A stretch of 64,000 nt of DNA from Candidatus Uhrbacteria bacterium (GCA_016188475.1 JACPHT010000008.1:34489-98488); one strand, 5' to 3'. Numbered from the stretch's first letter, positions 10,807 through 57,071 are shown. The notes: generated by a model not told the origin, from the letters alone. Program-made: numbers and translations.

Positions 10807-11469
10807 CTATTTATTTCTCCCAAACAACTTTGCGAGCCTTACTGTCAGCATCGCAATTCCGACCTGCCAAAACATACTTATATATTGTACCACAGCGAGC
10901 GGTATTGGGACTTTTTTATATTTTCGACGAAAAGTCAGGCCATGCATCACGACCGATCCAAAGCGCCACTTATGTAACTTACAAAAATAGTTCAACGCGC
11001 TTTCAACCATAAATCCATGTATAAATTCAGGAGGGACACTTTCAAAAACTCGGCGATTCATTGCGCGCTCGCCAGAAATAAGCGGAAGGTGCCGAGAAAT
11101 TGCTGTCCAAAAAATTCCACGATCACGGATCCCAACATTCATCATAAGCCCACCATTTATTACTGGAACCAAAAGCGTTTCAACGTGTTCCTCTGTAAGT
11201 CCAACAAGATCAGCGTCAAAAAAAGCAATAATTGGTGAGTTAGTTTGCGCAACAGCATACATCATAGCTCCTCCTTTTCCGGTTCGTTGTATTTTCAAAA
11301 CTTTTGCACCAGCTTTTTCAGCGACTTCTTTTGTGTTGTCTGTCGATCCATCAGAAATAACAAAAACCTCATCAACAAGTGGCGAAGCAACAAGCGGACG
11401 AATTACATTTTCGATAGTTTGTTCCTCGTTAAAGGCTGGAATGATTGCAGTAACACATGGACGATTCAT
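10807..11469 (-). CDS. Family 2 glycosyltransferase
   Basis: VTAIIPAFNEE...DGSTDNT...FFDADLV, DxD-type GT-A motifs. Confidence 0.7.
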   Translation of the reverse strand: MNRPCVTAIIPAFNEEQTIENVIRPLVASPLVDEVFVISDGSTDNTKEVAEKAGAKVLKIQRTGKGGAMMYAVAQTNSPIIAFFDADLVGLTEEHVETLLVPVINGGLMMNVGIRDRGIFWTAISRHLPLISGERAMNRRVFESVPPEFIHGFMVESALNYFCKLHKWRFGSVVMHGLTFRRKYKKVPIPLAVVQYISMFWQVGIAMLTVRLAKLFGRNK

Positions 11470-11480
11470 ATAGAGTAAGC

Positions 11481-12110
11481 CTACAAACGCTCGTTTTGAA
11501 CTTGACCTTGAAGGGTCTCCCCTTCCTGAAAAAGAATTATCGCTTCTTCATCTCCAGAAAACGTAAGATTCTGCAAAGCGTGAAGTGTTCGAGTGAAATA
11601 TGTCAAACACAATCGTTGCTCTTTTTTCGCAATTTGTCCTAAAACAGAATCACGCTGTGAAAATTCAGATCGCACGCACGCAAGTTTGATTGGAATCATT
11701 TTCACATTCACCAAAGCTCTAAATGCGTCTTCGCGATAAACTTTATCATGTTTATAAAAATAACGCGCATAATGAGCAACATGTTTTGCCCAAAGATAAA
11801 CACGCTCATAAAGCGGATCACGAAAAGTGTGAGCGCGCAAAACTTCTTTCAAAGATTCTTTGGCAAATGTTTTTATTTCTCGATCTGACGAATCTAAACT
11901 AAGAAGATGTTCTGGGCCAATTCTCAATGCCAAATCAGCTTCAAATTCAGCTTCAGTTTCAAGTTGTTCCTGAAGCACGCGTCCTTCCATTTTTAAAATC
12001 GGTCCACGAATTGATGGCGCGTGTTGTTTATATATTTCGTCAAGATCTTCCTCAAGAAGATCAATTTCATTTCTCTCAAACATCCACGGATTTGTTGATG
12101 GAAAAATCAT
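11481..12110 (-). CDS. Hypothetical protein. Its first ~27 codons are duplicated as a remnant at 14717-14797.
   Basis: No recognisable motif. N-terminus MIFPSTNPWMFERNEIDLLEEDLDEIY compares with the remnant MTFPSGNPRMLDRNEINLLEKENDGIY*. Confidence 0.5.
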   Translation of the reverse strand: MIFPSTNPWMFERNEIDLLEEDLDEIYKQHAPSIRGPILKMEGRVLQEQLETEAEFEADLALRIGPEHLLSLDSSDREIKTFAKESLKEVLRAHTFRDPLYERVYLWAKHVAHYARYFYKHDKVYREDAFRALVNVKMIPIKLACVRSEFSQRDSVLGQIAKKEQRLCLTYFTRTLHALQNLTFSGDEEAIILFQEGETLQGQVQNERL

Positions 12111-12215
12111 AAAGTTTTAATGTTTTTAATCTTACCATAAATCCATTATTACGATTGAAATAAATGATTTGAAGGTATATATTCAAGTTGTGGATAACTA
12201 ATTAAAGTTGCAAAT

Positions 12216-14654
12216 ATGCGTAAAAAAAATACCAATGGGTTTGCACATATTGGCTCGAATACGATCTGCAAGAATTTTTTACAACATTCAAAAGACGCGG
12301 TATTCATAGTCAACAAAAAAAATAAAGTCGAATACGCGAGTCCGTCTTGCAAAAAAATCTTTGGGTATTCCGCGAAAGAATTTATTAACGTACCGTGTTT
12401 GACAGAAAAAAAAATTCTTCATCCTTCGTGTAAAATACGTTTTGAAAAATTTTGGAAGGAATACGCGAAAAATAAAACTTTTCCTGTTAAAACTTCGGAA
12501 TGGAGATGGGTAAAAAAAGATGGAAAAGAAATATACACTAAAAATAGTTTTGTAAATTTATCAGAACACGGAAAAAGTGTTGGATTTTTAACAATCGCAC
12601 AAGACATAACTAAAGAAAAAGATAATGTTAAATTAACAGAACAACTTTCTTCTCTTCTAGATTCAATCAGAAAAATAGATCAACTAATTGTAAAAGAAAA
12701 AAATGAAGATATACTTCTGCAAAAAGCATGTGAAATTTTACGAGAAACAAGAGGATATAATTTTGTTTGGATCGGAATCGTCAATGAATATGAAAGAACT
12801 ATTACTCCTGTAGCTAGTTCTGGCCCTAAAATACTTCGTTCAAAACTCAAAAAATTTATTTGGACAAAACAAATGGAATCTTATTGCCATATTGTTCAAG
12901 TAATAAAGAATCGAAAAACCATATCATTAAATAAACTCACCTCTCCTTTTTTAGACATCAATAAATTATGCTCGTGGCATAAAGGTATAATTCAATATGG
13001 CGATATATCCACGATTTTCGTTCCATTAATTAGAGCTAAATTGGTATCAGCGATTATTGTATTAAGTTCTCCCGAGCCTAAAATTTTTAATCTTCATGAA
13101 ATAAAATTGATAAAAGAGCTGGCTAATAACATAGCGTTTGCTCTTCAGTCAATTAAAATAGAAAAAACAGCAAAAGAAAATGAAACGCTTTACACAGCAC
13201 TAGTTGAGCTTTCGCCGGACATTGTGGCAGTGCACAGTCAAGGAAAAATTGTGTTGGTAAACAAAGCCGCTGTAAAATCATTCGGCGCGAAAAACAAAAA
13301 AGAATTGATTGGCAAGCCTGTGATAAATTTTGTACATCCAGAAAGTCGGGCCGATGTCATAAAAAGAATTAAAAAAATGACGACGAAACACAGACAAGCT
13401 CCTCCGATTGAAGAAAGATTCCTTCGCCTTAATGGCACACCGTTTGATGTTGAGACATCGGCTGTACCAATAAAATATAAAGGGAAACCAGCGATTCAAG
13501 TTGTTGCGCATGATATTGGCGCGCGTAAAAAATCTGCGATTGCTTTGGCTCAGGAATCTTCGCTGGCGCAAAACATAATTGATCTGAATCCATACGCTGT
13601 TGCTCTTGGAAGATCAGACGGATATATCTTTAGAATCAACAAAGCATTCGTGCAACTTTTCGGTTCAACTCCGCCGCCAGATTACAACATATTCAAAGAT
13701 CCAATGTTGCTAAAATCCGACTATAAAAAATTATTCAAAAAAATGTTTGAGGGTGAGATAGTCGAGTTTCCAAAAATTTGGTACAACGCTCATAGACTAA
13801 ACCCGCGATTGCCTGACAAAGAAATTTGTATTCGCTCTGTATTTTTTCCAATCAAAGGAGTCAATAAAAAAGTTGAGTATGTGGTAGGAATGCACGAAAA
13901 CATCACGCAAGCGGCGCAAATAGACAAAGCAAAAAGCGAGTTTGTATCCCTGGCTTCGCATCAGCTTAAGACACCGTTGACTGGAATTAAATGGTTCACT
14001 GAACTATTGATGGATCACACAGAACAACAATTAACAAAGAGACAGTCTGAACTCGCAAAAGAAATTTCCATAGCCAATCAACGCATGATAACTCTTGTTA
14101 ATGCGCTGTTGAATGTTTCAAGGATTGAAATGGGGACAATGAAAATAGAGCCAAAAAAAATCAACGCGGAAGAACTAGCAAACGAGTGTGTAAGATTACT
14201 GATGCCTAGAGTCAAAAAAAATAATCAATATCTGACGAAAAATTTTCACCTGACACAAAAATTCGTCATCAACGATCGCAACTTATTGGCGATGATCATT
14301 CAAAATATTTTAGCAAACGCGATTCAATACACAAAATCAAACGGGCAAATTAAGTTTAGCCTTGAGAACAAACAGGATAATCTTTTGCTAACTATAAGCG
14401 ATACTGGAATAGGAATTCCACTCAGCGCTCAAGAAAAAATTTTCACAAAACTTTATAGGGCCGACAACGCGAAAATCTTTTCACCTAACGGAAACGGACT
14501 TGGGTTATATATCGTGAAGTCTGTGCTTGATTACATGAACGGAAAAATTTGGTTTACCTCAACAGTTGGAAAAGGAACAACGTTTTATGTAAGTATCCCA
14601 ATGAAAGGAATCACGAGAAAAAAAGGAACAAAAAATTTGATAATGAATGAATAA
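12216..14654 (+). CDS. PAS-domain sensor histidine kinase (812 aa), AT-richer than neighbours, opposite strand to flanking genes
   Basis: H-box SLASHQLKTPLTGI. N, G1 and G2 boxes (DTGIGIP, GNGLGLYIVK, GKGTTF). Several PAS-like blocks. Confidence 0.8.
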   Translation: MRKKNTNGFAHIGSNTICKNFLQHSKDAVFIVNKKNKVEYASPSCKKIFGYSAKEFINVPCLTEKKILHPSCKIRFEKFWKEYAKNKTFPVKTSEWRWVKKDGKEIYTKNSFVNLSEHGKSVGFLTIAQDITKEKDNVKLTEQLSSLLDSIRKIDQLIVKEKNEDILLQKACEILRETRGYNFVWIGIVNEYERTITPVASSGPKILRSKLKKFIWTKQMESYCHIVQVIKNRKTISLNKLTSPFLDINKLCSWHKGIIQYGDISTIFVPLIRAKLVSAIIVLSSPEPKIFNLHEIKLIKELANNIAFALQSIKIEKTAKENETLYTALVELSPDIVAVHSQGKIVLVNKAAVKSFGAKNKKELIGKPVINFVHPESRADVIKRIKKMTTKHRQAPPIEERFLRLNGTPFDVETSAVPIKYKGKPAIQVVAHDIGARKKSAIALAQESSLAQNIIDLNPYAVALGRSDGYIFRINKAFVQLFGSTPPPDYNIFKDPMLLKSDYKKLFKKMFEGEIVEFPKIWYNAHRLNPRLPDKEICIRSVFFPIKGVNKKVEYVVGMHENITQAAQIDKAKSEFVSLASHQLKTPLTGIKWFTELLMDHTEQQLTKRQSELAKEISIANQRMITLVNALLNVSRIEMGTMKIEPKKINAEELANECVRLLMPRVKKNNQYLTKNFHLTQKFVINDRNLLAMIIQNILANAIQYTKSNGQIKFSLENKQDNLLLTISDTGIGIPLSAQEKIFTKLYRADNAKIFSPNGNGLGLYIVKSVLDYMNGKIWFTSTVGKGTTFYVSIPMKGITRKKGTKNLIMNE

Positions 14655-14762
14655 AATCTGTTTTCCTTACGCATCTTTTTTTGTTTAATACATTGCTCTG
14701 TTTGTTCGTGCTGTTAATAGATTCCATCGTTCTCTTTTTCAAGAAGATTAATTTCATTTCTA

Positions 14763-15347
14763 TCAAGCATCCGCGGATTTCCTGATGGAAAGGTCATATA
14801 GCATTTCATCCAAACGTTTTAGATTACCTTTTGCCTGATCAAATTTTGTGCGCAAATATCCTGTAGCGTCCAAGTCGAGCATAAATTCAATTATCATCTC
14901 AACGGTATCCCGTGCGTGAACAACGCGATCTGTTTTTCCATGCGTTATGTTTCGCATTGTATAGCGCACGATCTCTCCGGTTGTGTCTGAAAGTCCTGAA
15001 AGATACACAAGAGGTTCCATCGCTCGTTTGTGAATAACACCAATTTTTCCAGTTGAAAAATACTGTTCAAACAAAAGCGCTTCCGCGTATTCTTCAAGAG
15101 CGGCTCTATACGAACCCTCAAAACGCAGACCTTCTACGCGCTTAAATAAGCTCTCGCTTTTCGCGAACAATGCGTCAGCTTCTTTCAACAACGCTTTTGA
15201 AGCATCTTGATCATCTCGATGGAGCGCAAATATCGCACGTTTACTTAGACTCAATGCTTCATTTGAAAAAGCGATAACTTCGCGACGCAACTGCTCTCGA
15301 GCAAGATGTGCGGATCGAATTGTTGTAAAAATTGATGGACGTTTCAT
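14763..15347 (-). CDS. Hypothetical protein
   Basis: ORF only; no motif recognised. Confidence 0.4.
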   Translation of the reverse strand: MKRPSIFTTIRSAHLAREQLRREVIAFSNEALSLSKRAIFALHRDDQDASKALLKEADALFAKSESLFKRVEGLRFEGSYRAALEEYAEALLFEQYFSTGKIGVIHKRAMEPLVYLSGLSDTTGEIVRYTMRNITHGKTDRVVHARDTVEMIIEFMLDLDATGYLRTKFDQAKGNLKRLDEMLYDLSIRKSADA

Positions 15348-15490
15348 ATCTTAAATTATGTTGTCTTTAACGGACATATCATAAGCGACAAGAGTTAATT
15401 GAGCAAACGTGAAAAATTACATTCTTGGCATTTTCTTGCCAAACAATAAAATTCCTGATATATTTTCGTCGCTTATTTTAAATGGATAAT

Positions 15491-15653
15491 GCGCTGGTAG
15501 CTCAGCGGTAGAGCAAGAGCCTTTTAAGCTCGTGGCCGTGGGTTCGATGCGCGAGCGAGCGAGGGGAGAGACCAAGCCAAATGCTTGGACTATCCCGAGC
15601 GAACGAACGCAATATGGCCGAGCCGTTTTAGGCGAGAGCCATATCCCCACCCA
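15491..15653 (+). pseudogene. Disrupted tRNA-Lys copy. Positions 1-58 (15491-15548) are followed by a ~95-bp GC-rich insertion, then an 11-nt T-arm/acceptor fragment atccccaccca (15643-15653). The 3' acceptor strand is missing.
   Basis: Positions 1-58 are identical to the intact tRNA-Lys 137 bp downstream. Seen directly. Confidence 0.6.
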
Positions 15654-15684
15654 TGTTGGGGATCGTCAGTACAACTTAACTTAT

Positions 15685-15759
15685 GCGCTGGTAGCTCAGC
15701 GGTAGAGCAAGAGCCTTTTAAGCTCGTGGCCGTGGGTTCGATCCCCACCCAGCGCACCA
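15685..15759 (+). tRNA. tRNA-Lys (anticodon TTT)
   Basis: Acceptor gcgctgg/ccagcgc perfect. Anticodon loop cttttaa. T-loop ttcgatc. CCA encoded. Followed by a terminator hairpin aaaacactcaa-cttg-tttgagtgtttt. Confidence 0.85.
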
Positions 15760-15965
15760 AGATAAAACACTCAACTTGTTTGAGTGTTTTATCTTTTATA
15801 GCGCAATCTATTCTTCCTCAATTGACAACACCTCTGTCACATGATACCTTTTTACATCACATTCTCTTCAGTGATTTGGTCGGAAAAATAATTTCCTACT
15901 AAATCGTTGCCGAGATGGTAACCGCTTTGGGATTGTCCCAAGTGCTCCTGTGATAGGAGGTTCTC

Positions 15966-16511
15966 ATGTTCGGAAAAGTTAGGTCAGAGCGTTCGTTCTC
16001 GCTCTGTCTCGCAGAAGAACTTCTGCGAGCAGAACTCAGGAAACACTTCGGCGACGAAGTCAAGATCTTTCAGATGAACATGGTGGCGACAAAACCAATC
16101 AAGCAATTTCCACAACCAGTGACGTTGACCGACCTTGAAATAAACCAGTCTTGGTCTAAGCACTGGGAGCGATACATAACAATGGTCGGACGTTTCGGTC
16201 CTGTTGGACGACTCTATCCTGACAATCCACCAGAGGATTTACGCGGTCGTATATTCCTAATCGAAGCCAAATGCAGACTGTTCTCTATTGAGTCAGGCTG
16301 TGTCATGTGGAGACCGCACTTCATGCGATATACCATCACAACAGATGAAGGTTTCAATCACGCTCAAGTCGTTCGGCTCTATGAAGACGGGAGAGTTTAC
16401 GGAGGAAGGCTGACAATGCTTGTTCCTGATAACCCGTGTCATGTCATGGTGGCGAGCCAAGGTCCTCGTGGATACGTTCCTGACGACTGGACGCCTCGTA
16501 TCAAGAACTAA
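15966..16511 (+). CDS. Hypothetical protein (181 aa), GC-rich islet next to tRNA-Lys
   Basis: SD-like ggagg 8 nt upstream. GC-rich codon usage. No motif recognised. Confidence 0.5.
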   Translation: MFGKVRSERSFSLCLAEELLRAELRKHFGDEVKIFQMNMVATKPIKQFPQPVTLTDLEINQSWSKHWERYITMVGRFGPVGRLYPDNPPEDLRGRIFLIEAKCRLFSIESGCVMWRPHFMRYTITTDEGFNHAQVVRLYEDGRVYGGRLTMLVPDNPCHVMVASQGPRGYVPDDWTPRIKN

Positions 16512-16615
16512 TCTGGGTCTTGCAAATTCATGCAAGACTCTTTTTTATTATCAACTCTTGCCATGCTTTTGTTTGCCTTGTATCATGCCATTACTAACAA
16601 AATAATTTTATTTCT

Positions 16616-16750
16616 ATGGACGGAACAGGAATTTGCACAGCCTGTGGAGTAAGCACGGGCGATGACGAAAAGGAAACATGTCCGGATTGTGAAGAAGCGG
16701 CTCCTGCAGAAGGAACTGACGAAGGGCCAACACTAGAACCAGAAGAATAA
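16616..16750 (+). CDS. Small acidic Cys-rich peptide (44 aa, CxxC...CxxC), not in the ORF track
   Basis: ATG at 16616. MDGTGICTACGVSTGDDEKETCPDCEEAAPAEGTDEGPTLEPEE*. Immediately followed by a strong terminator. Confidence 0.3.
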   Translation: MDGTGICTACGVSTGDDEKETCPDCEEAAPAEGTDEGPTLEPEE

Positions 16751-16756
16751 AAAAAT

Positions 16757-16790
16757 ATGCCCAACTCTGGGCGTATTTTTTTATTGAAAC
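16757..16790. terminator. Intrinsic terminator tatgccca-actc-tgggcgta + T7, bidirectional with the DoxX gene
   Basis: 8-bp stem with T-run, seen directly. Confidence 0.65.
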
Positions 16791-17164
16791 CAATCTTTTC
16801 CTTGCTTTGGCCAACCAACAAGAACCAGCAAAGCAAGCGGAGCTCCCCAATTCGCGAATCGTTCAATAAAATCCCAACCAGATTCTCCAACGATCGGACG
16901 AATAAGCGCTGTCCAAAATCCCCAAAACGCCATCCACAAAAGCGCTAGACGAACCGGTCGAAGTAAAATCACAACAGCAAGCACGATGTCTAAAACTCCA
17001 ATCAATATCAATAACTGCGTTGCAAGAGTGACGTCTGAAATTCCAAACGTTGAAAACCATCCGATCCAAGCCGGCTTTCCAGAAACTGCGAGCGCGCCGT
17101 GCCCGATAAATTCTCCGGCAACAGCGATTCGCAAAATCCACTCAATTTTTTTGTGGGAAGACAT
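16781..17164 (-). CDS. DoxX-family membrane protein
   Basis: Four TM. W/G-rich pattern typical of DoxX/DoxD. Confidence 0.5.
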   Translation of the reverse strand: MSSHKKIEWILRIAVAGEFIGHGALAVSGKPAWIGWFSTFGISDVTLATQLLILIGVLDIVLAVVILLRPVRLALLWMAFWGFWTALIRPIVGESGWDFIERFANWGAPLALLVLVGWPKQGKDWFQ

Positions 17165-17233
17165 AAATATAATGTTCTAAAATTTATTCCTTCGACAGGA
17201 GATAAATTTTTCTAATTTCTTAATTTAAATAAA

Positions 17234-18250
17234 TTAAATATTTACTATCAAATCAATTATATCACCCGCGACATCCGTGCGTAAAACAGAACTAATTCGC
17301 GAAGAGTATTGTTCACGAGCTTGCGGATCATCTAACAATAGACGAATCTCGCTTAACAAAATTTCAGAGGTTGTATTTTCCTGATCTAAAATACGCGCGG
17401 AATCTCTCAACGCTTTCGCATTATCTTCTTGGAGAGAATTCGGCAGTGGAATTAAAATCGCTGGTTTACGCAAAGCGGAAAGTTCCGCTATCGTTCCCAT
17501 TCCAGCCCGCGCGACAATAAGATCAGCAACAGCATACGCGTCTGCCATTTCTTTTCCAAGCGATTCAACAACAACATAACCTGAAACAGATGTAAGTTCA
17601 CCGCGTTTCCTAAAACCAGTTATATGTAAAACATTAGCCTTTTGACAAAGTTGCGGAGCAATTTCAAAAATTTGTTCATTCAACCATTCTGCACCTGTGC
17701 CTCCTCCAAAAACCAAAACCGTTGGTTTATTTTTATCCAAATGAAAATATGCAATGGCTTTTTCTTTTGAACCATGCGACAAAGTATCGCGAACCGGAAC
17801 ACCAAATTGATCCCATGCAGAAATTACTTTCGAAACAAAAGGCGAAACTATTTTTGTTGACAAAAGAATTTTAACATCTGTTTGAAGCGTGATTGATTTA
17901 ACGCGAACCACCCAAGCCGCGAGTATCACTGGCACTTGCGTAAATCCACCAGCGCCAATCACGACATTTGGTCTTTCATTTGTAATCACTTTTACACTTG
18001 TAATCAAAGCTCGCAAAAACTGAATCGGAAGAAACAATAGTTCAATCGAAACATATCGCGGAAATCGCGCAACAGGAATTTGAAAAAAACGAATCGCATA
18101 TTCTTCTTCAACAAGTTTTCGCTCGGGACCACTTTGCGTTCCAATCCATACAAATTCAACACTCGCATCGCGTTTTCGCCATGCTTCAACAATCGCCAAA
18201 AGTGGTGTGACTGATCCAAGTGTTCCGCCGCCCGTGAGAAGAATAAGCAT
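17234..18250 (-). CDS. murG: Undecaprenyldiphospho-muramoylpentapeptide beta-N-acetylglucosaminyltransferase
   Basis: N-terminal LLTGGGTLGSVTPLLAI. GT28 architecture. Lies in the dcw cluster after ftsW. Confidence 0.8.
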   Translation of the reverse strand: MLILLTGGGTLGSVTPLLAIVEAWRKRDASVEFVWIGTQSGPERKLVEEEYAIRFFQIPVARFPRYVSIELLFLPIQFLRALITSVKVITNERPNVVIGAGGFTQVPVILAAWVVRVKSITLQTDVKILLSTKIVSPFVSKVISAWDQFGVPVRDTLSHGSKEKAIAYFHLDKNKPTVLVFGGGTGAEWLNEQIFEIAPQLCQKANVLHITGFRKRGELTSVSGYVVVESLGKEMADAYAVADLIVARAGMGTIAELSALRKPAILIPLPNSLQEDNAKALRDSARILDQENTTSEILLSEIRLLLDDPQAREQYSSRISSVLRTDVAGDIIDLIVNI

Positions 18251-45857: not shown

Positions 45858-46298
45858 ATGATTTATCTTCCTCTAATTTTAATTCCAGCGATCTTCGTCC
45901 TCTTCACTTTTCTAAAACCAAAAGTTAAAGGTATTGAATTGTGTGGGGTCTGCGCCGCTGTTAGCATCACTTGGCTGATTCTTTTGATTTCTGTTTTTGT
46001 TCTAATCGTTCCAGTTTCACCACTCCTCATCGGAATTCTAATGGGAATGAGCGTGATCGGCGGACTTTCAAAAGCAGAACCGTGGCTCAAAAAACAAAAT
46101 GTACAACATATTCCGCTTATAAAAATTATCGTGATACTCGGCGGACTTTATACTGTTTTGTTCTTGATTGAACAGCAATGGCGTTTGCTGATAATCACAA
46201 TTATAATTTCGATTTTCGCACTCATTATAATTACGCTTCTCATGCAAAAAAGATCGCATAGACATTTGGAAGGACAGAAACATTTAGATTGTTGTTAA
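45858..46298 (+). CDS. Membrane protein (4 TM), hypothetical
   Basis: Hydrophobic profile. Confidence 0.4.
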   Translation: MIYLPLILIPAIFVLFTFLKPKVKGIELCGVCAAVSITWLILLISVFVLIVPVSPLLIGILMGMSVIGGLSKAEPWLKKQNVQHIPLIKIIVILGGLYTVLFLIEQQWRLLIITIIISIFALIIITLLMQKRSHRHLEGQKHLDCC

Positions 46299-46475
46299 AA
46301 TAGACCCCACAAAAAACAGGATTTAGAAATAAGACAAAATTGCGCAAGACGCAGTTTTGGAGCATTGAAAAACCACAGCGGTATCCGTAGATACCGTGAG
46401 GATTTTTCAAGGTGAAAAACAAGTCCTGCACGATTTTGGCTGTTTATCGAGTCCTGTTTTTTGTGGGGTCTATTT
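46297..46475. repeat. ~180-nt element with 24-bp perfect terminal inverted repeats AAATAGACCCCACAAAAAACAGGA / TCCTGTTTTTTGTGGGGTCTATTT, carrying the same structured core as 39103-39174
   Basis: Seen directly. Confidence 0.75.
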
Positions 46476-46514
46476 AAAAAGTCGCTTGGCATTGAAACCA
46501 AGCGACCAGAGACA

Positions 46515-55330: not shown

Positions 55331-55538
55331 ATGAAATTACCGAAGAAATCGTACTCCGTTTACCAACTTTTTTCAAATGGAACAAACGTTATGAAACCGA
55401 ATTTAAGTCGCCGATGGTTTGACAATGTTGGTCATCTTGGAGCGAGAAATTTATGAAACGTAACCGTAGCTACGTTGAGTAAATTTCTTGGGAAAGATGG
55501 CCAATATTGGCAAATCCAGCAAGACTTGGAGTGCGGCT

Positions 55539-57071
55539 TCATAACGTTTGTTCCATAGGTTTGCCTTCTTCAAACCCAGACGAGGTTTGCACGCCAACAA
55601 CTACGTTTTGAAAAAACATTTCTAAATTTGAAACGCCAGAATAAGTGCACGCGCTTCGCAAACCAGCAGTGATTTCATCCAAAATATCTTCAGCACTTTC
55701 CTGTCCAGATTTCAAATACATTTTTGATTGACTCACACCTTCTTCAAAAAACGTTCGACGTGCGATTTCAAACGGATCCAATTGGCGACTTCGATCCAAC
55801 ACCGCGCGACTCGAAGCCATTCCAAATTGTTCCTTAAACAAATTTCCATCTGAATCGCGTTGAACATCGGCCGGGCTTTCAAATGTCCCAACAAACCAAG
55901 AGCCAAACATTGCGTGACTCGCGCCTGCCGCAAGCGCCAAAACAACGTCGCGGGGAGATCGAACACCTCCATCAGCCCAAACCTGTGCTCCGCGATTTCT
56001 AGCGATAGCTGACACTCGATGTACGGCAGAAAACTGAGGCCGGCCGACTCCTGTTGTCATGCGTGTTTTGCATGCGGCTCCAGGGCCAACTCCGACTTTC
56101 AAAATATTGGCGCCGGCTTCAATAAAATCATCAGCGGCAACGGCGGTTACGATATTTCCTGCGGCCAAAGGTTTGTCAGAACCCAAAATCGCGCGAGTCG
56201 TTCGAATCGCATCAAGCATTTGTTTTTGATGACCATGGGCCGTATCAAGAACAATCACATCAACTCCGATTTGAATCAACCGATCAACAGTATCTGCAAC
56301 GCGATCGCGAACACGCACAGCAACACACGTCATCAGTTCACTTTTTGTGTTCAAGGCAGGCTGATACATTGTCGCGCGAACTGCTCCTTTTCGCGTCATC
56401 ACCCCAGCAAGTGTGCCATCTGGATGAATTACAGGAACGATGGATAATCGACGCTCCGTAAGAAAATGAAAAATTTCTTTTGGTAACATCGTGCTTGAGA
56501 CGCTGATCAGTTGACGAGTCATTACGTCTCCAAGACGTGAATACCGATCGCGACGGTACGAATCCTTTTCAGTAAAAATTCCAACCGGACGATTGTTGTC
56601 GTCAGTAATAACAACAGCTTCATGCGAACGTTTGTGAATCAAGTTGAGCGCTGTTTGAACAGACTGATCTTCTTTCAATACAACAGGCGTTTCATAAACA
56701 TGATGACACTGCTTCACATATCGAACAATATCCTCGATTCGCTCAAATGGAATGTCTTGAGGTAACACGACTAGGCCGCCGCGACGCGTAACTGTTTCGG
56801 CCATGCGTTTACCGGCAACTGCTGTCATGTTTGAAACAACTATTGGAATTTTCGTTCCAAGATTTCCAACAGGAGTCAAATCAACATCCATTCGAGATTG
56901 AATTTCAGAATACAATGGCATTAAAAAAACGTCGTTATAAGTGAGCTCTTTTTGTTCATCTTCAGGTCGCAAGAATCGCATAGAACTCCAGCTTACAACA
57001 AGAATAAAAAAAGCGCATCCTTGTTTGAATGCGCAGTTAGAACTACTGGACAATGAGATGATCCGACTCAA
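55539..57071 (-). CDS. guaB: IMP dehydrogenase family (start probably MRFLRPED; N-terminal extension doubtful)
   Basis: GVGPGAACKTR catalytic loop. CBS pair. TIM barrel. Confidence 0.75.
   Translation of the reverse strand: MSRIISLSSSSNCAFKQGCAFFILVVSWSSMRFLRPEDEQKELTYNDVFLMPLYSEIQSRMDVDLTPVGNLGTKIPIVVSNMTAVAGKRMAETVTRRGGLVVLPQDIPFERIEDIVRYVKQCHHVYETPVVLKEDQSVQTALNLIHKRSHEAVVITDDNNRPVGIFTEKDSYRRDRYSRLGDVMTRQLISVSSTMLPKEIFHFLTERRLSIVPVIHPDGTLAGVMTRKGAVRATMYQPALNTKSELMTCVAVRVRDRVADTVDRLIQIGVDVIVLDTAHGHQKQMLDAIRTTRAILGSDKPLAAGNIVTAVAADDFIEAGANILKVGVGPGAACKTRMTTGVGRPQFSAVHRVSAIARNRGAQVWADGGVRSPRDVVLALAAGASHAMFGSWFVGTFESPADVQRDSDGNLFKEQFGMASSRAVLDRSRQLDPFEIARRTFFEEGVSQSKMYLKSGQESAEDILDEITAGLRSACTYSGVSNLEMFFQNVVVGVQTSSGFEEGKPMEQTL

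Follow-up and report, generated by a model that had tools for sequence, protein, structure and literature searches.

The window analysed here is a 64,000-nucleotide stretch of DNA from a Candidatus Uhrbacteria bacterium (GCA_016188475.1, JACPHT010000008.1:34489-98488), a groundwater metagenome-assembled genome (MAG) of the Patescibacteria/candidate phyla radiation (CPR). In it a gene for a sensor histidine kinase (HK) lies between two imperfect direct repeats and separates a translin-family gene from the gene for a conserved hypothetical protein of 209 amino acids (p209). The repeats are two copies of a single ancestral junction, at which the translin-family gene overlapped the start of p209. 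Comparison with related loci leads us to conclude that a local rearrangement probably moved a resident HK gene in between the two partners, and that the junction was duplicated in such a way that both kept complete ends. The event appears to be a tidy but ordinary local rearrangement, not the arrival of a mobile element or an imported island.

Two copies of one junction

A first-pass annotation of the window described 59-bp direct repeats at 12052-12110 and 14739-14797, and counting bears this out: 51 of 59 positions are identical and 8 differ. It also reported weaker similarity over about 20 bp more. The extension is real; its size is different, running some 36 nt further on one side and 4 nt on the other. 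Its 34 nt outside the core match at 22 positions in a fixed register (p = 5e-6), which is significant alone. In a repeat search the pair is the single strong direct-repeat family (12020-12114 against 14707-14801; 95 nt, 79% identity, spacing 2687). In 6 kb, a match of 51/59 is expected by chance about 1e-14 times and one of 75/95 about 2e-19 times.

Several other statements of that annotation hold. The second copy encodes a truncated look-alike of the p209 N-terminus, reading MTFPSGNPRMLDRNEINLLEKENDGIY*. The 2.6-kb segment between the repeats (12115-14705, 2591 nt) contains the 812-amino-acid HK gene as its sole gene according to open reading frame (ORF) and Pfam analysis. This gene is on the plus strand and both flanking genes are on the minus strand, and its GC content is 34.9% against 38.6-42.7% in its neighbours. 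Independent Logan assemblies, made from three sequencing runs (L001/L028, L002, L003 and L029), contain both junctions, which excludes an artefact of the MAG assembly. The features of the locus are as follows.

11481 to 12110, minus strand: p209, conserved hypothetical protein of 209 amino acids (NCBI HYV69_03010), specific to Uhrbacteria-like Patescibacteria
12020 to 12114, minus strand: repeat copy 1, the working 5' end of p209 (4 nt upstream of the ATG and codons 1-31)
12216 to 14654, plus strand: HK, cytoplasmic sensor histidine kinase of 812 amino acids, Pfam PAS-GAF-PAS-(PAS)-HisKA-HATPase_c; the gene that was probably relocated
14655 to 14705, no strand: HK 3' flank, 51 nt, up to the junction with repeat copy 2; no significant structure
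14707 to 14762, minus strand: repeat copy 2, distal part; decaying p209 pseudogene fragment, codons 12-31, with a premature TAA at codon 28
14763 to 14801, minus strand: repeat copy 2, proximal part; supplies the translin-family gene with its final 11 codons and stop; relic p209 ATG at 14795-14797
14763 to 15347, minus strand: translin-family gene, 194 amino acids (PF01997, 1.4e-18), ancestrally the upstream overlapping partner of p209

Empty sites and the ancestral overlap

What did this locus look like before the repeats arose? We collected 32 loci through their p209, HK and ATPase proteins; they are referred to here by L numbers. The first-pass annotation had suggested that relatives might carry an empty site, and they do: the translin-family gene directly abuts or overlaps the p209 gene. 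At least 11 distinct lineages (L005-type, L009, L019, L022, L010, L016, L017, L024, L025, L026 and L027) have the order P-type ATPase-translin-p209-GT2-murD on one strand without HK, with p209 identities ranging from 82% down to 29%.

Eight of the empty-site lineages have a translin gene that terminates 35-44 nt into p209. The N-terminus of p209 is conserved across the family as M-x-F-x-x-x-N-P-W-x-F-E/H-R-D/N-E-I-D-L-L-E-E. Residue 10 is M, I, L or V; because it is not always Met, the upstream ATG must be the true start. The translin proteins of the relatives, for their part, all end in S-(V/M/L)-D-V. Judged by this conservation, the ancestral overlap is evidently genuine coding sequence in both frames of the same strand, and the two genes were probably translationally coupled.

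Homology to close relatives breaks off in the window at 12114, 4 nt before the p209 ATG, and picks up again at 14706, at nt 92 of p209. Because the breaks fall at p209 -4 and +92, the repeat is the ancestral translin/p209 junction present twice, and the position of HK between the copies is therefore derived. The duplicated unit is 96 nt long, its exact limits being given by the points (12114 and 14706) at which homology with L005 ends.

Three loci have lost the translin gene. In L032 the deletion is precise: just 2 nt separate the ATPase stop from the p209 ATG, and the former TGA no longer exists (TTC GAG; region 340-420). In L030 (7560-7700) and L031 (5105-5250) the ATPase ORF continues into p209 as far as the former translin TGA (...RKSVGV*), which recreates a 35-nt overlap of p209 with a different upstream gene. 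The losses in L032 and in L030/L031 are independent, and each breakpoint lies 2-4 nt before the p209 ATG.

A kinase probably native to the neighbourhood

HK carries HisKA (PF00512, 2.2e-15) and HATPase_c (PF02518, 5.3e-27) domains, with the H-box SHQLKTPL in its translation. No response-regulator gene adjoins it in the window, in L013 or in L031, which makes it an orphan kinase. A search of 5.8 billion proteins found orthologues in only two lineages, L012/L031 and L013, at 61-62% identity. Other matches reach at most 30% identity at comparable coverage, and higher values only over short conserved stretches (up to about 30% of the query).

Both orthologues lie in the murG-translin neighbourhood in which the window's kinase is found, and since its only orthologues are there, HK is a resident of that neighbourhood. 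L013, which comes from the same MAG as the empty-site contig L010, has the order mraY-ftsW-murG-p127-tRNA-Lys-HK(antisense)-ATPase. Its HK is divergent from the ATPase and convergent with tRNA-Lys. L012/L031 show the same antisense, divergent arrangement of HK and ATPase, and the HK of L012 also converges on tRNA-Lys. Its strand is opposite to that of the cell-wall (dcw) genes in either setting, whether it lies between tRNA-Lys and the ATPase (L013/L031) or between translin and p209 (the window). Gene order places its ancestral position, as far as these loci can tell, on the other side of the ATPase and translin genes, some 3 kb upstream in the dcw neighbourhood.

The low GC content of HK, which falls to 30.5% in its first kilobase, is also found in the orthologues (33% in L013 against 39-45% in its neighbours; 37% in L012 against 41.5%). 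The protein consists of K, N, I, F and Y for 37% of its residues, compared with 22-24% in neighbouring proteins. Because the orthologues share the AT bias and the K/N/I/F/Y-rich protein, low GC is intrinsic to the gene and not a mark of import; the composition expected of a foreign island is lacking. For HK, every pairing of the window, L012 and L013 gives 61-62% identity; for the ATPase, with the window's clade represented by L005 and L022, every pairing with and between L012 and L013 gives 68-70%. Since the three-way distances of HK mirror those of the ATPase, descent of HK appears congruent with vertical inheritance. The first-pass annotation had implied that an AT-rich kinase came in from outside. 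With syntenic orthologues in two Uhrbacteria lineages, equally AT-rich and at ATPase-like distances, HK is probably not foreign. The island-like look of the segment is explained by the synteny of its orthologues and by its gene-intrinsic composition.

Fate of the two copies

Copy 2 provides the translin-family gene with its last 11 codons and stop (14763-14797), and its proximal part has been retained because that gene needs it. In these 35 nt there are only two differences from the relatives, both T to C, which change V to A in translin (...SADA*). In the old p209 frame the same two changes turn the invariant W9 into R and F11 into L. Past the translin stop the copy departs from the consensus of the relatives at 14 of 57 positions (Jukes-Cantor (JC) distance 0.30). 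The codon changes there comprise 6 synonymous and 7 non-synonymous ones, including the TAA at codon 28, and the invariant p209 residues D17 and E21 are lost. By this pattern the superfluous 57 nt of copy 2 are decaying neutrally.

Copy 1 has the opposite history. After nt 35 it is nearly identical to the relatives (3-6 differences in 57 nt), and the formerly overlapping nt 1-35 contain four changes (ACC to ATT and GGA to ACA) that replace T2 by I and G6 by T. Copy 1 is, on this evidence, the working start of p209, now free of constraint from the translin frame. Each copy has taken on substitutions that the second frame would not have tolerated while the genes overlapped.

The window's own synonymous branch is about 0.3-0.37, a rough estimate from synonymous divergence (dS) of 0.5-0.6 to L005/L009/L022 and of 0.34-0.38 among those relatives. 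Because the JC distance of the relic, 0.30, is close to this branch length, the event is old and fixed. No window-specific substitution is common to both repeat copies.

We also considered the relic as a transcription terminator between the convergent HK and translin genes and rejected it: folding gave z scores of -0.6 and -0.06, and a terminator scan found none there.

The missing ATPase and the promoters

The two gene orders to be connected are these.

Ancestral: tRNA-Lys, HK(-), ATPase, translin/p209
Window: tRNA-Lys, (ATPase remnant?), translin, p209', HK(-), p209

Besides the position of HK, they differ in the ATPase gene. The 64-kb window has no orthologue of it, its sole match being an unrelated P-type ATPase of 25% identity, and the protein collection contains no NCBI-sourced orthologue above 76% identity. 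The loss may have left a trace, and the promoter region that HK and the ATPase ancestrally shared has its counterpart next to HK.

15350 to 15411, minus strand: possible remnant of the ATPase 3' end (LLSLMICPLK against LLLLMIALLK), with its best local match at 15377-15394
12115 to 12215, no strand: divergent promoter region of 101 nt, conserved with L013, that would have travelled with HK

The putative remnant is a weak match in the right orientation and place, within the 84 nt that separate the translin ATG from the tRNA-Lys promoter. Shuffling gives p = 0.003-0.005 against the last 260 nt of the ATPase gene and p = 0.04 against the whole gene. A decayed ATPase 3' end directly upstream of the translin gene is thus suggested, and we put it no higher than that.

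The 101-nt region contains a predicted HK promoter, TTGAAA-17-TATATT at 12155-12183 (plus strand), found by a promoter scan. Its minus strand carries an ATPase-type extended -10 element, TGGTAAGAT (12137 to 12129), which now lies 18 nt upstream of the p209 ATG. The element matches a motif, ATTTATG-N-TAAACT, which in L005, L022 and L013 stops 6 nt short of the ATPase start codon; there ATTTATGNTAAACT precedes the ATPase ATG. We infer that p209 and the downstream GT2 and mur genes are now driven by the former ATPase promoter. The rearrangement cut a dcw-linked operon and would have left p209-GT2-murD-murE probably under a promoter that shares its control region with an orphan sensor kinase.

A proposed route by duplication and loss

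Of the routes by which the new order may have arisen, tandem duplication-random loss (TDRL) is the most economical. A tandem duplication of the block HK-ATPase-translin-p209 (nt 1-92 of p209) would have come first. HK and the ATPase would then have been deleted from the first copy, and the ATPase and translin genes from the second. HK would have moved together with its 101-nt divergent promoter region. Such a route accounts for the direct repeat, the truncated relic, the unchanged orientation of HK, the loss of the ATPase and the presence of an ATPase promoter before p209. Relative to the gene order of the relatives, HK has indeed undergone a local transposition that kept its orientation, and a partial, decaying copy of p209 (14707-14762) sits at the edge of the moved block. 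The deletion steps are realistic because deletions that end 2-4 nt upstream of the p209 ATG recur (L032; L030/L031). The first-pass annotation had set its own reading against the possibility that the repeats are part of a larger tandem duplication. Such a duplication may well have been the historical mechanism; none survives today.

Several observations weigh against this reconstruction. None of the 32 loci is an intermediate with both duplicate blocks. No second repeat is found at the left edge, where the HK 3' flank compared with the tRNA-Lys promoter region gives p = 0.29. The adjoining tRNA-Lys unit is inverted relative to L013 and L005, which points to further rearrangements in the region. 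Of the closest relatives (L005, L009, L019 and L022), the two whose upstream region is covered, L005 and L022, have no HK, so vertical descent of HK requires one or two independent losses. The relic is also unevenly diverged from copy 1, at 2 of 23 positions in nt 36-58 and 12 of 34 in nt 59-92 (Fisher p = 0.03), and in its distal part the nominally closest sequence is that of the outgroup L010 (8/34 differences, against 11-12/34). This unevenness could reflect gene conversion of the proximal part, a duplication that predates the split from L005, or a mosaic origin. Of the five distal states shared with L010, three are AT-biased and three are at synonymous positions. These are positions that toggle readily, and parallel change is a plausible explanation; we do not count the sharing as evidence of a foreign origin of the relic.

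Alternative explanations

The route above needs at least three events; one complex episode of template switching would lead to the same outcome. HK may thus have been relocated directly, its segment being excised or replicated and inserted into the overlap in one or a few steps. Illegitimate recombination could have produced the 96-nt duplication directly. So could switching of the kind known as fork stalling and template switching or microhomology-mediated break-induced replication (FoSTeS/MMBIR), from the tRNA side to translin, back to HK and forward to p209. The ATPase would then have been skipped or deleted separately. The end product is the one that TDRL yields, no trace of a larger tandem duplication survives, and the three junctions (translin -2; p209 +92 / HK +51; HK -101 / p209 -4) all lie at gene boundaries. 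Yet 96 nt is unusually long for a duplication at a staggered break, and a separate loss of the ATPase becomes an unexplained coincidence. We consider a direct relocation unlikely, while granting it some weight.

Could the segment have come from another Uhrbacterium, perhaps together with the distal relic, and have recombined at the translin/p209 junction? The nearest relatives do not have HK, the gene is AT-richer than its neighbours, and the distal relic is both unevenly diverged and nominally closest to L010. Two lineages nevertheless hold orthologues in this same neighbourhood, with the same AT bias and with distances that mirror those of the ATPase. The gene missing from the window is, moreover, exactly the ancestral divergent partner of HK, which a local event explains and an import does not. 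The states shared with L010 can be explained by parallel change, given their AT bias and the three synonymous positions, and no mobility genes are present. We regard horizontal acquisition as quite unlikely.

Less probable still, to the point of being extremely unlikely, is that HK between translin and p209 is the ancestral arrangement of the window's clade and that the closest relatives were emptied by recombination between the direct repeats. The relic has diverged by roughly the length of the window's entire terminal branch, and its distal part lacks the clade-specific codons GAT CTT GAC. A repeat-mediated deletion of the kind required plausibly produced the single tRNA-Lys of L022. Against it stand the intact overlap in eight lineages, deep outgroups among them, the ATPase that close relatives keep and the window lacks, and the location of the HK orthologues elsewhere.

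The first-pass annotation had offered two further phrases for the locus. An insertion with duplication of target sequence is right in that the junction is duplicated and the position of HK derived, and wrong if a classical target-site duplication is meant. The scar of a recombination that brought in the kinase is right about the derived position and the empty sites, and wrong about foreign or mobile DNA. The insert 12115-14705 contains no transposase, integrase or recombinase gene, HK being its only substantial ORF (Pfam PAS/GAF/HisKA/HATPase_c). Comparison of its 60-nt left end with the reverse complement of its right end reveals no terminal inverted repeats (TIRs; best local score 7, over 11 nt with 2 mismatches). 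There is no second copy of the HK segment in the window, and the neighbouring ORFs have no match in PHROGs. For a site-specific island the locus lacks an integrase and an identical att core, and the repeats, which are diverged, lie in protein-coding sequence. A mobile element (insertion sequence, transposon, integrative island or cassette) with target-site duplication, or an assembly chimera, might be suspected from direct repeats around a single opposite-strand, AT-rich gene. It is effectively refuted by these results, by a repeat of 95-96 nt at 79% identity instead of a short and exact one (2-14 bp), and by junctions that independent assemblies reproduce.

The surrounding region

Downstream of p209 on the minus strand are genes for a GT2 glycosyltransferase, murD and murE, and murG and ftsW lie further upstream, which identifies a dcw neighbourhood. 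A translin-family gene with an overlapping, lineage-specific helical protein (p209) thus sits inside the dcw cluster of Uhrbacteria-like Patescibacteria. p209 is all-helical, its C-terminal half forming a four-helix bundle, and no sequence relation to translin or TRAX was found. Neither Pfam nor PHROGs gave a match for p209, for p127, for a 181-amino-acid ORF (p181) or for a 44-amino-acid ORF; an Rfam scan of 11400-17300 returned tRNAs only.

The 181-amino-acid ORF (15966-16511, plus strand) has a GC content of 48.5%, and 49.5% at third codon positions (GC3), above its surroundings. A homologue of 75% identity occupies the same place and orientation in L022; L005 and L013 have none. The Cys-rich 44-amino-acid ORF (...CTACGV...CPDCEE...; 16616-16750, plus strand) adjoins it.

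Between murG and translin lies a rearrangement hot spot whose content varies among the ATPase, HK, p181 and an unrelated 209-amino-acid ORF (L005). It also holds a repeated tRNA-Lys unit (15434-15759 in the window). The first 60 nt of tRNA-Lys(UUU), at 15489-15548, are repeated with 100% identity at 15683-15742, inside the full tRNA (15685-15759). A 134-nt element, 'X' (15549-15682), lies between the copies, and it is 92-93% identical between the window and L013, while neighbouring genes have dS above 1.4. Counterparts of the unit occur in L005 (3602-3927), L013 (4016-4351) and L017 (about 2281-2580), and an X-like piece lies at 7689-7773 in L010. X folds into three hairpins, in which six pairs show compensatory changes across four lineages; in L017 one hairpin is replaced by a different, longer one. 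It has no match in Rfam, and its folding and conservation suggest that it is possibly an undescribed structured RNA co-transcribed with tRNA-Lys. In L013 both 60-nt copies have the same T to C change in the acceptor stem, which indicates concerted evolution, and L022 has a single tRNA-Lys without X, plausibly through recombination between the repeats. The strand of the unit relative to the dcw genes varies: opposite in the window, L022, L017 and L026, the same in L005, L013, L024 and L027. This tRNA-Lys was also exposed in a comparison of HK 3' flanks: that of the window shows no convincing homology to those of L012 and L013, where tRNA-Lys was found downstream of HK.

Elsewhere in the window, self-BLAST detected two long imperfect palindromes of about 180 nt at 74% identity (46295-46478 and 55377-55556) and three direct pairs of 68-112 nt at 75-84% identity (5742-5845/25071-25174, 39066-39175/46314-46423 and 1557-1624/1935-2002).

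Significance and comparison with known systems

The locus documents, at sequence level and with a date, how two overlapping genes can come apart with neither being damaged. It also carries a caution for island prediction in CPR genomes: an AT-rich, opposite-strand gene between direct repeats need not be foreign. One may speculate further that junction duplication is a recurrent and selectable way to open overlapping gene pairs in small CPR genomes, possibly through a particular process of recombination or replication whose products are direct duplications of 60-100 nt. The 60-nt tRNA-Lys duplication and the repeated flips of the tRNA-Lys unit in the same 4-kb stretch hint in that direction, as do at least three independent rearrangements with breakpoints 2-4 nt upstream of the p209 start; even so, we think the generalization very unlikely to hold.

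How does the event compare with better-known ones? Transposon insertions also place host-sequence direct repeats around inserted DNA and leave empty sites in relatives. Here the repeat is 96 nt long rather than 2-14 bp, it has diverged to 79% identity, and there is no transposase, TIR or other copy. Phages and integrative and conjugative elements (ICEs) that integrate into tRNA or tmRNA genes offer a second parallel, in that a duplicated gene end keeps the interrupted gene functional and direct repeats bound the insert. The present locus differs in having no integrase or att core, in rescuing two overlapping protein genes, and in drawing the duplicate from the same locus and not from the element.

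A closer likeness is to the TDRL changes of gene order described for animal mitochondrial genomes. These share with our locus a local transposition without inversion, a decaying partial copy at the edge of the block and the loss of redundant copies. The differences are that this is a bacterial (CPR) chromosome, that the remnant has been partly kept as the end of an overlapping gene, that the ATPase has been lost from both copies, and that the route is reconstructed without an observed intermediate.

Finally, conserved, translationally coupled overlapping gene pairs on the same strand are known in bacteria (for example PMC2542354 and PMC1940028). The ancestral translin/p209 pair resembles them, with its 35-44-nt overlap and constraint on both frames. 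A limited literature search found only general papers on overlapping genes, and no described bacterial overlap that was resolved by duplication. The event is of a known kind, to judge by these parallels; the resolution of an overlap by duplication, with relaxation to a single frame in both copies, is less commonly documented. What sets the window apart from conserved overlapping pairs is that its overlap was undone by duplication, after which the copies diverged, each under the constraint of one frame.

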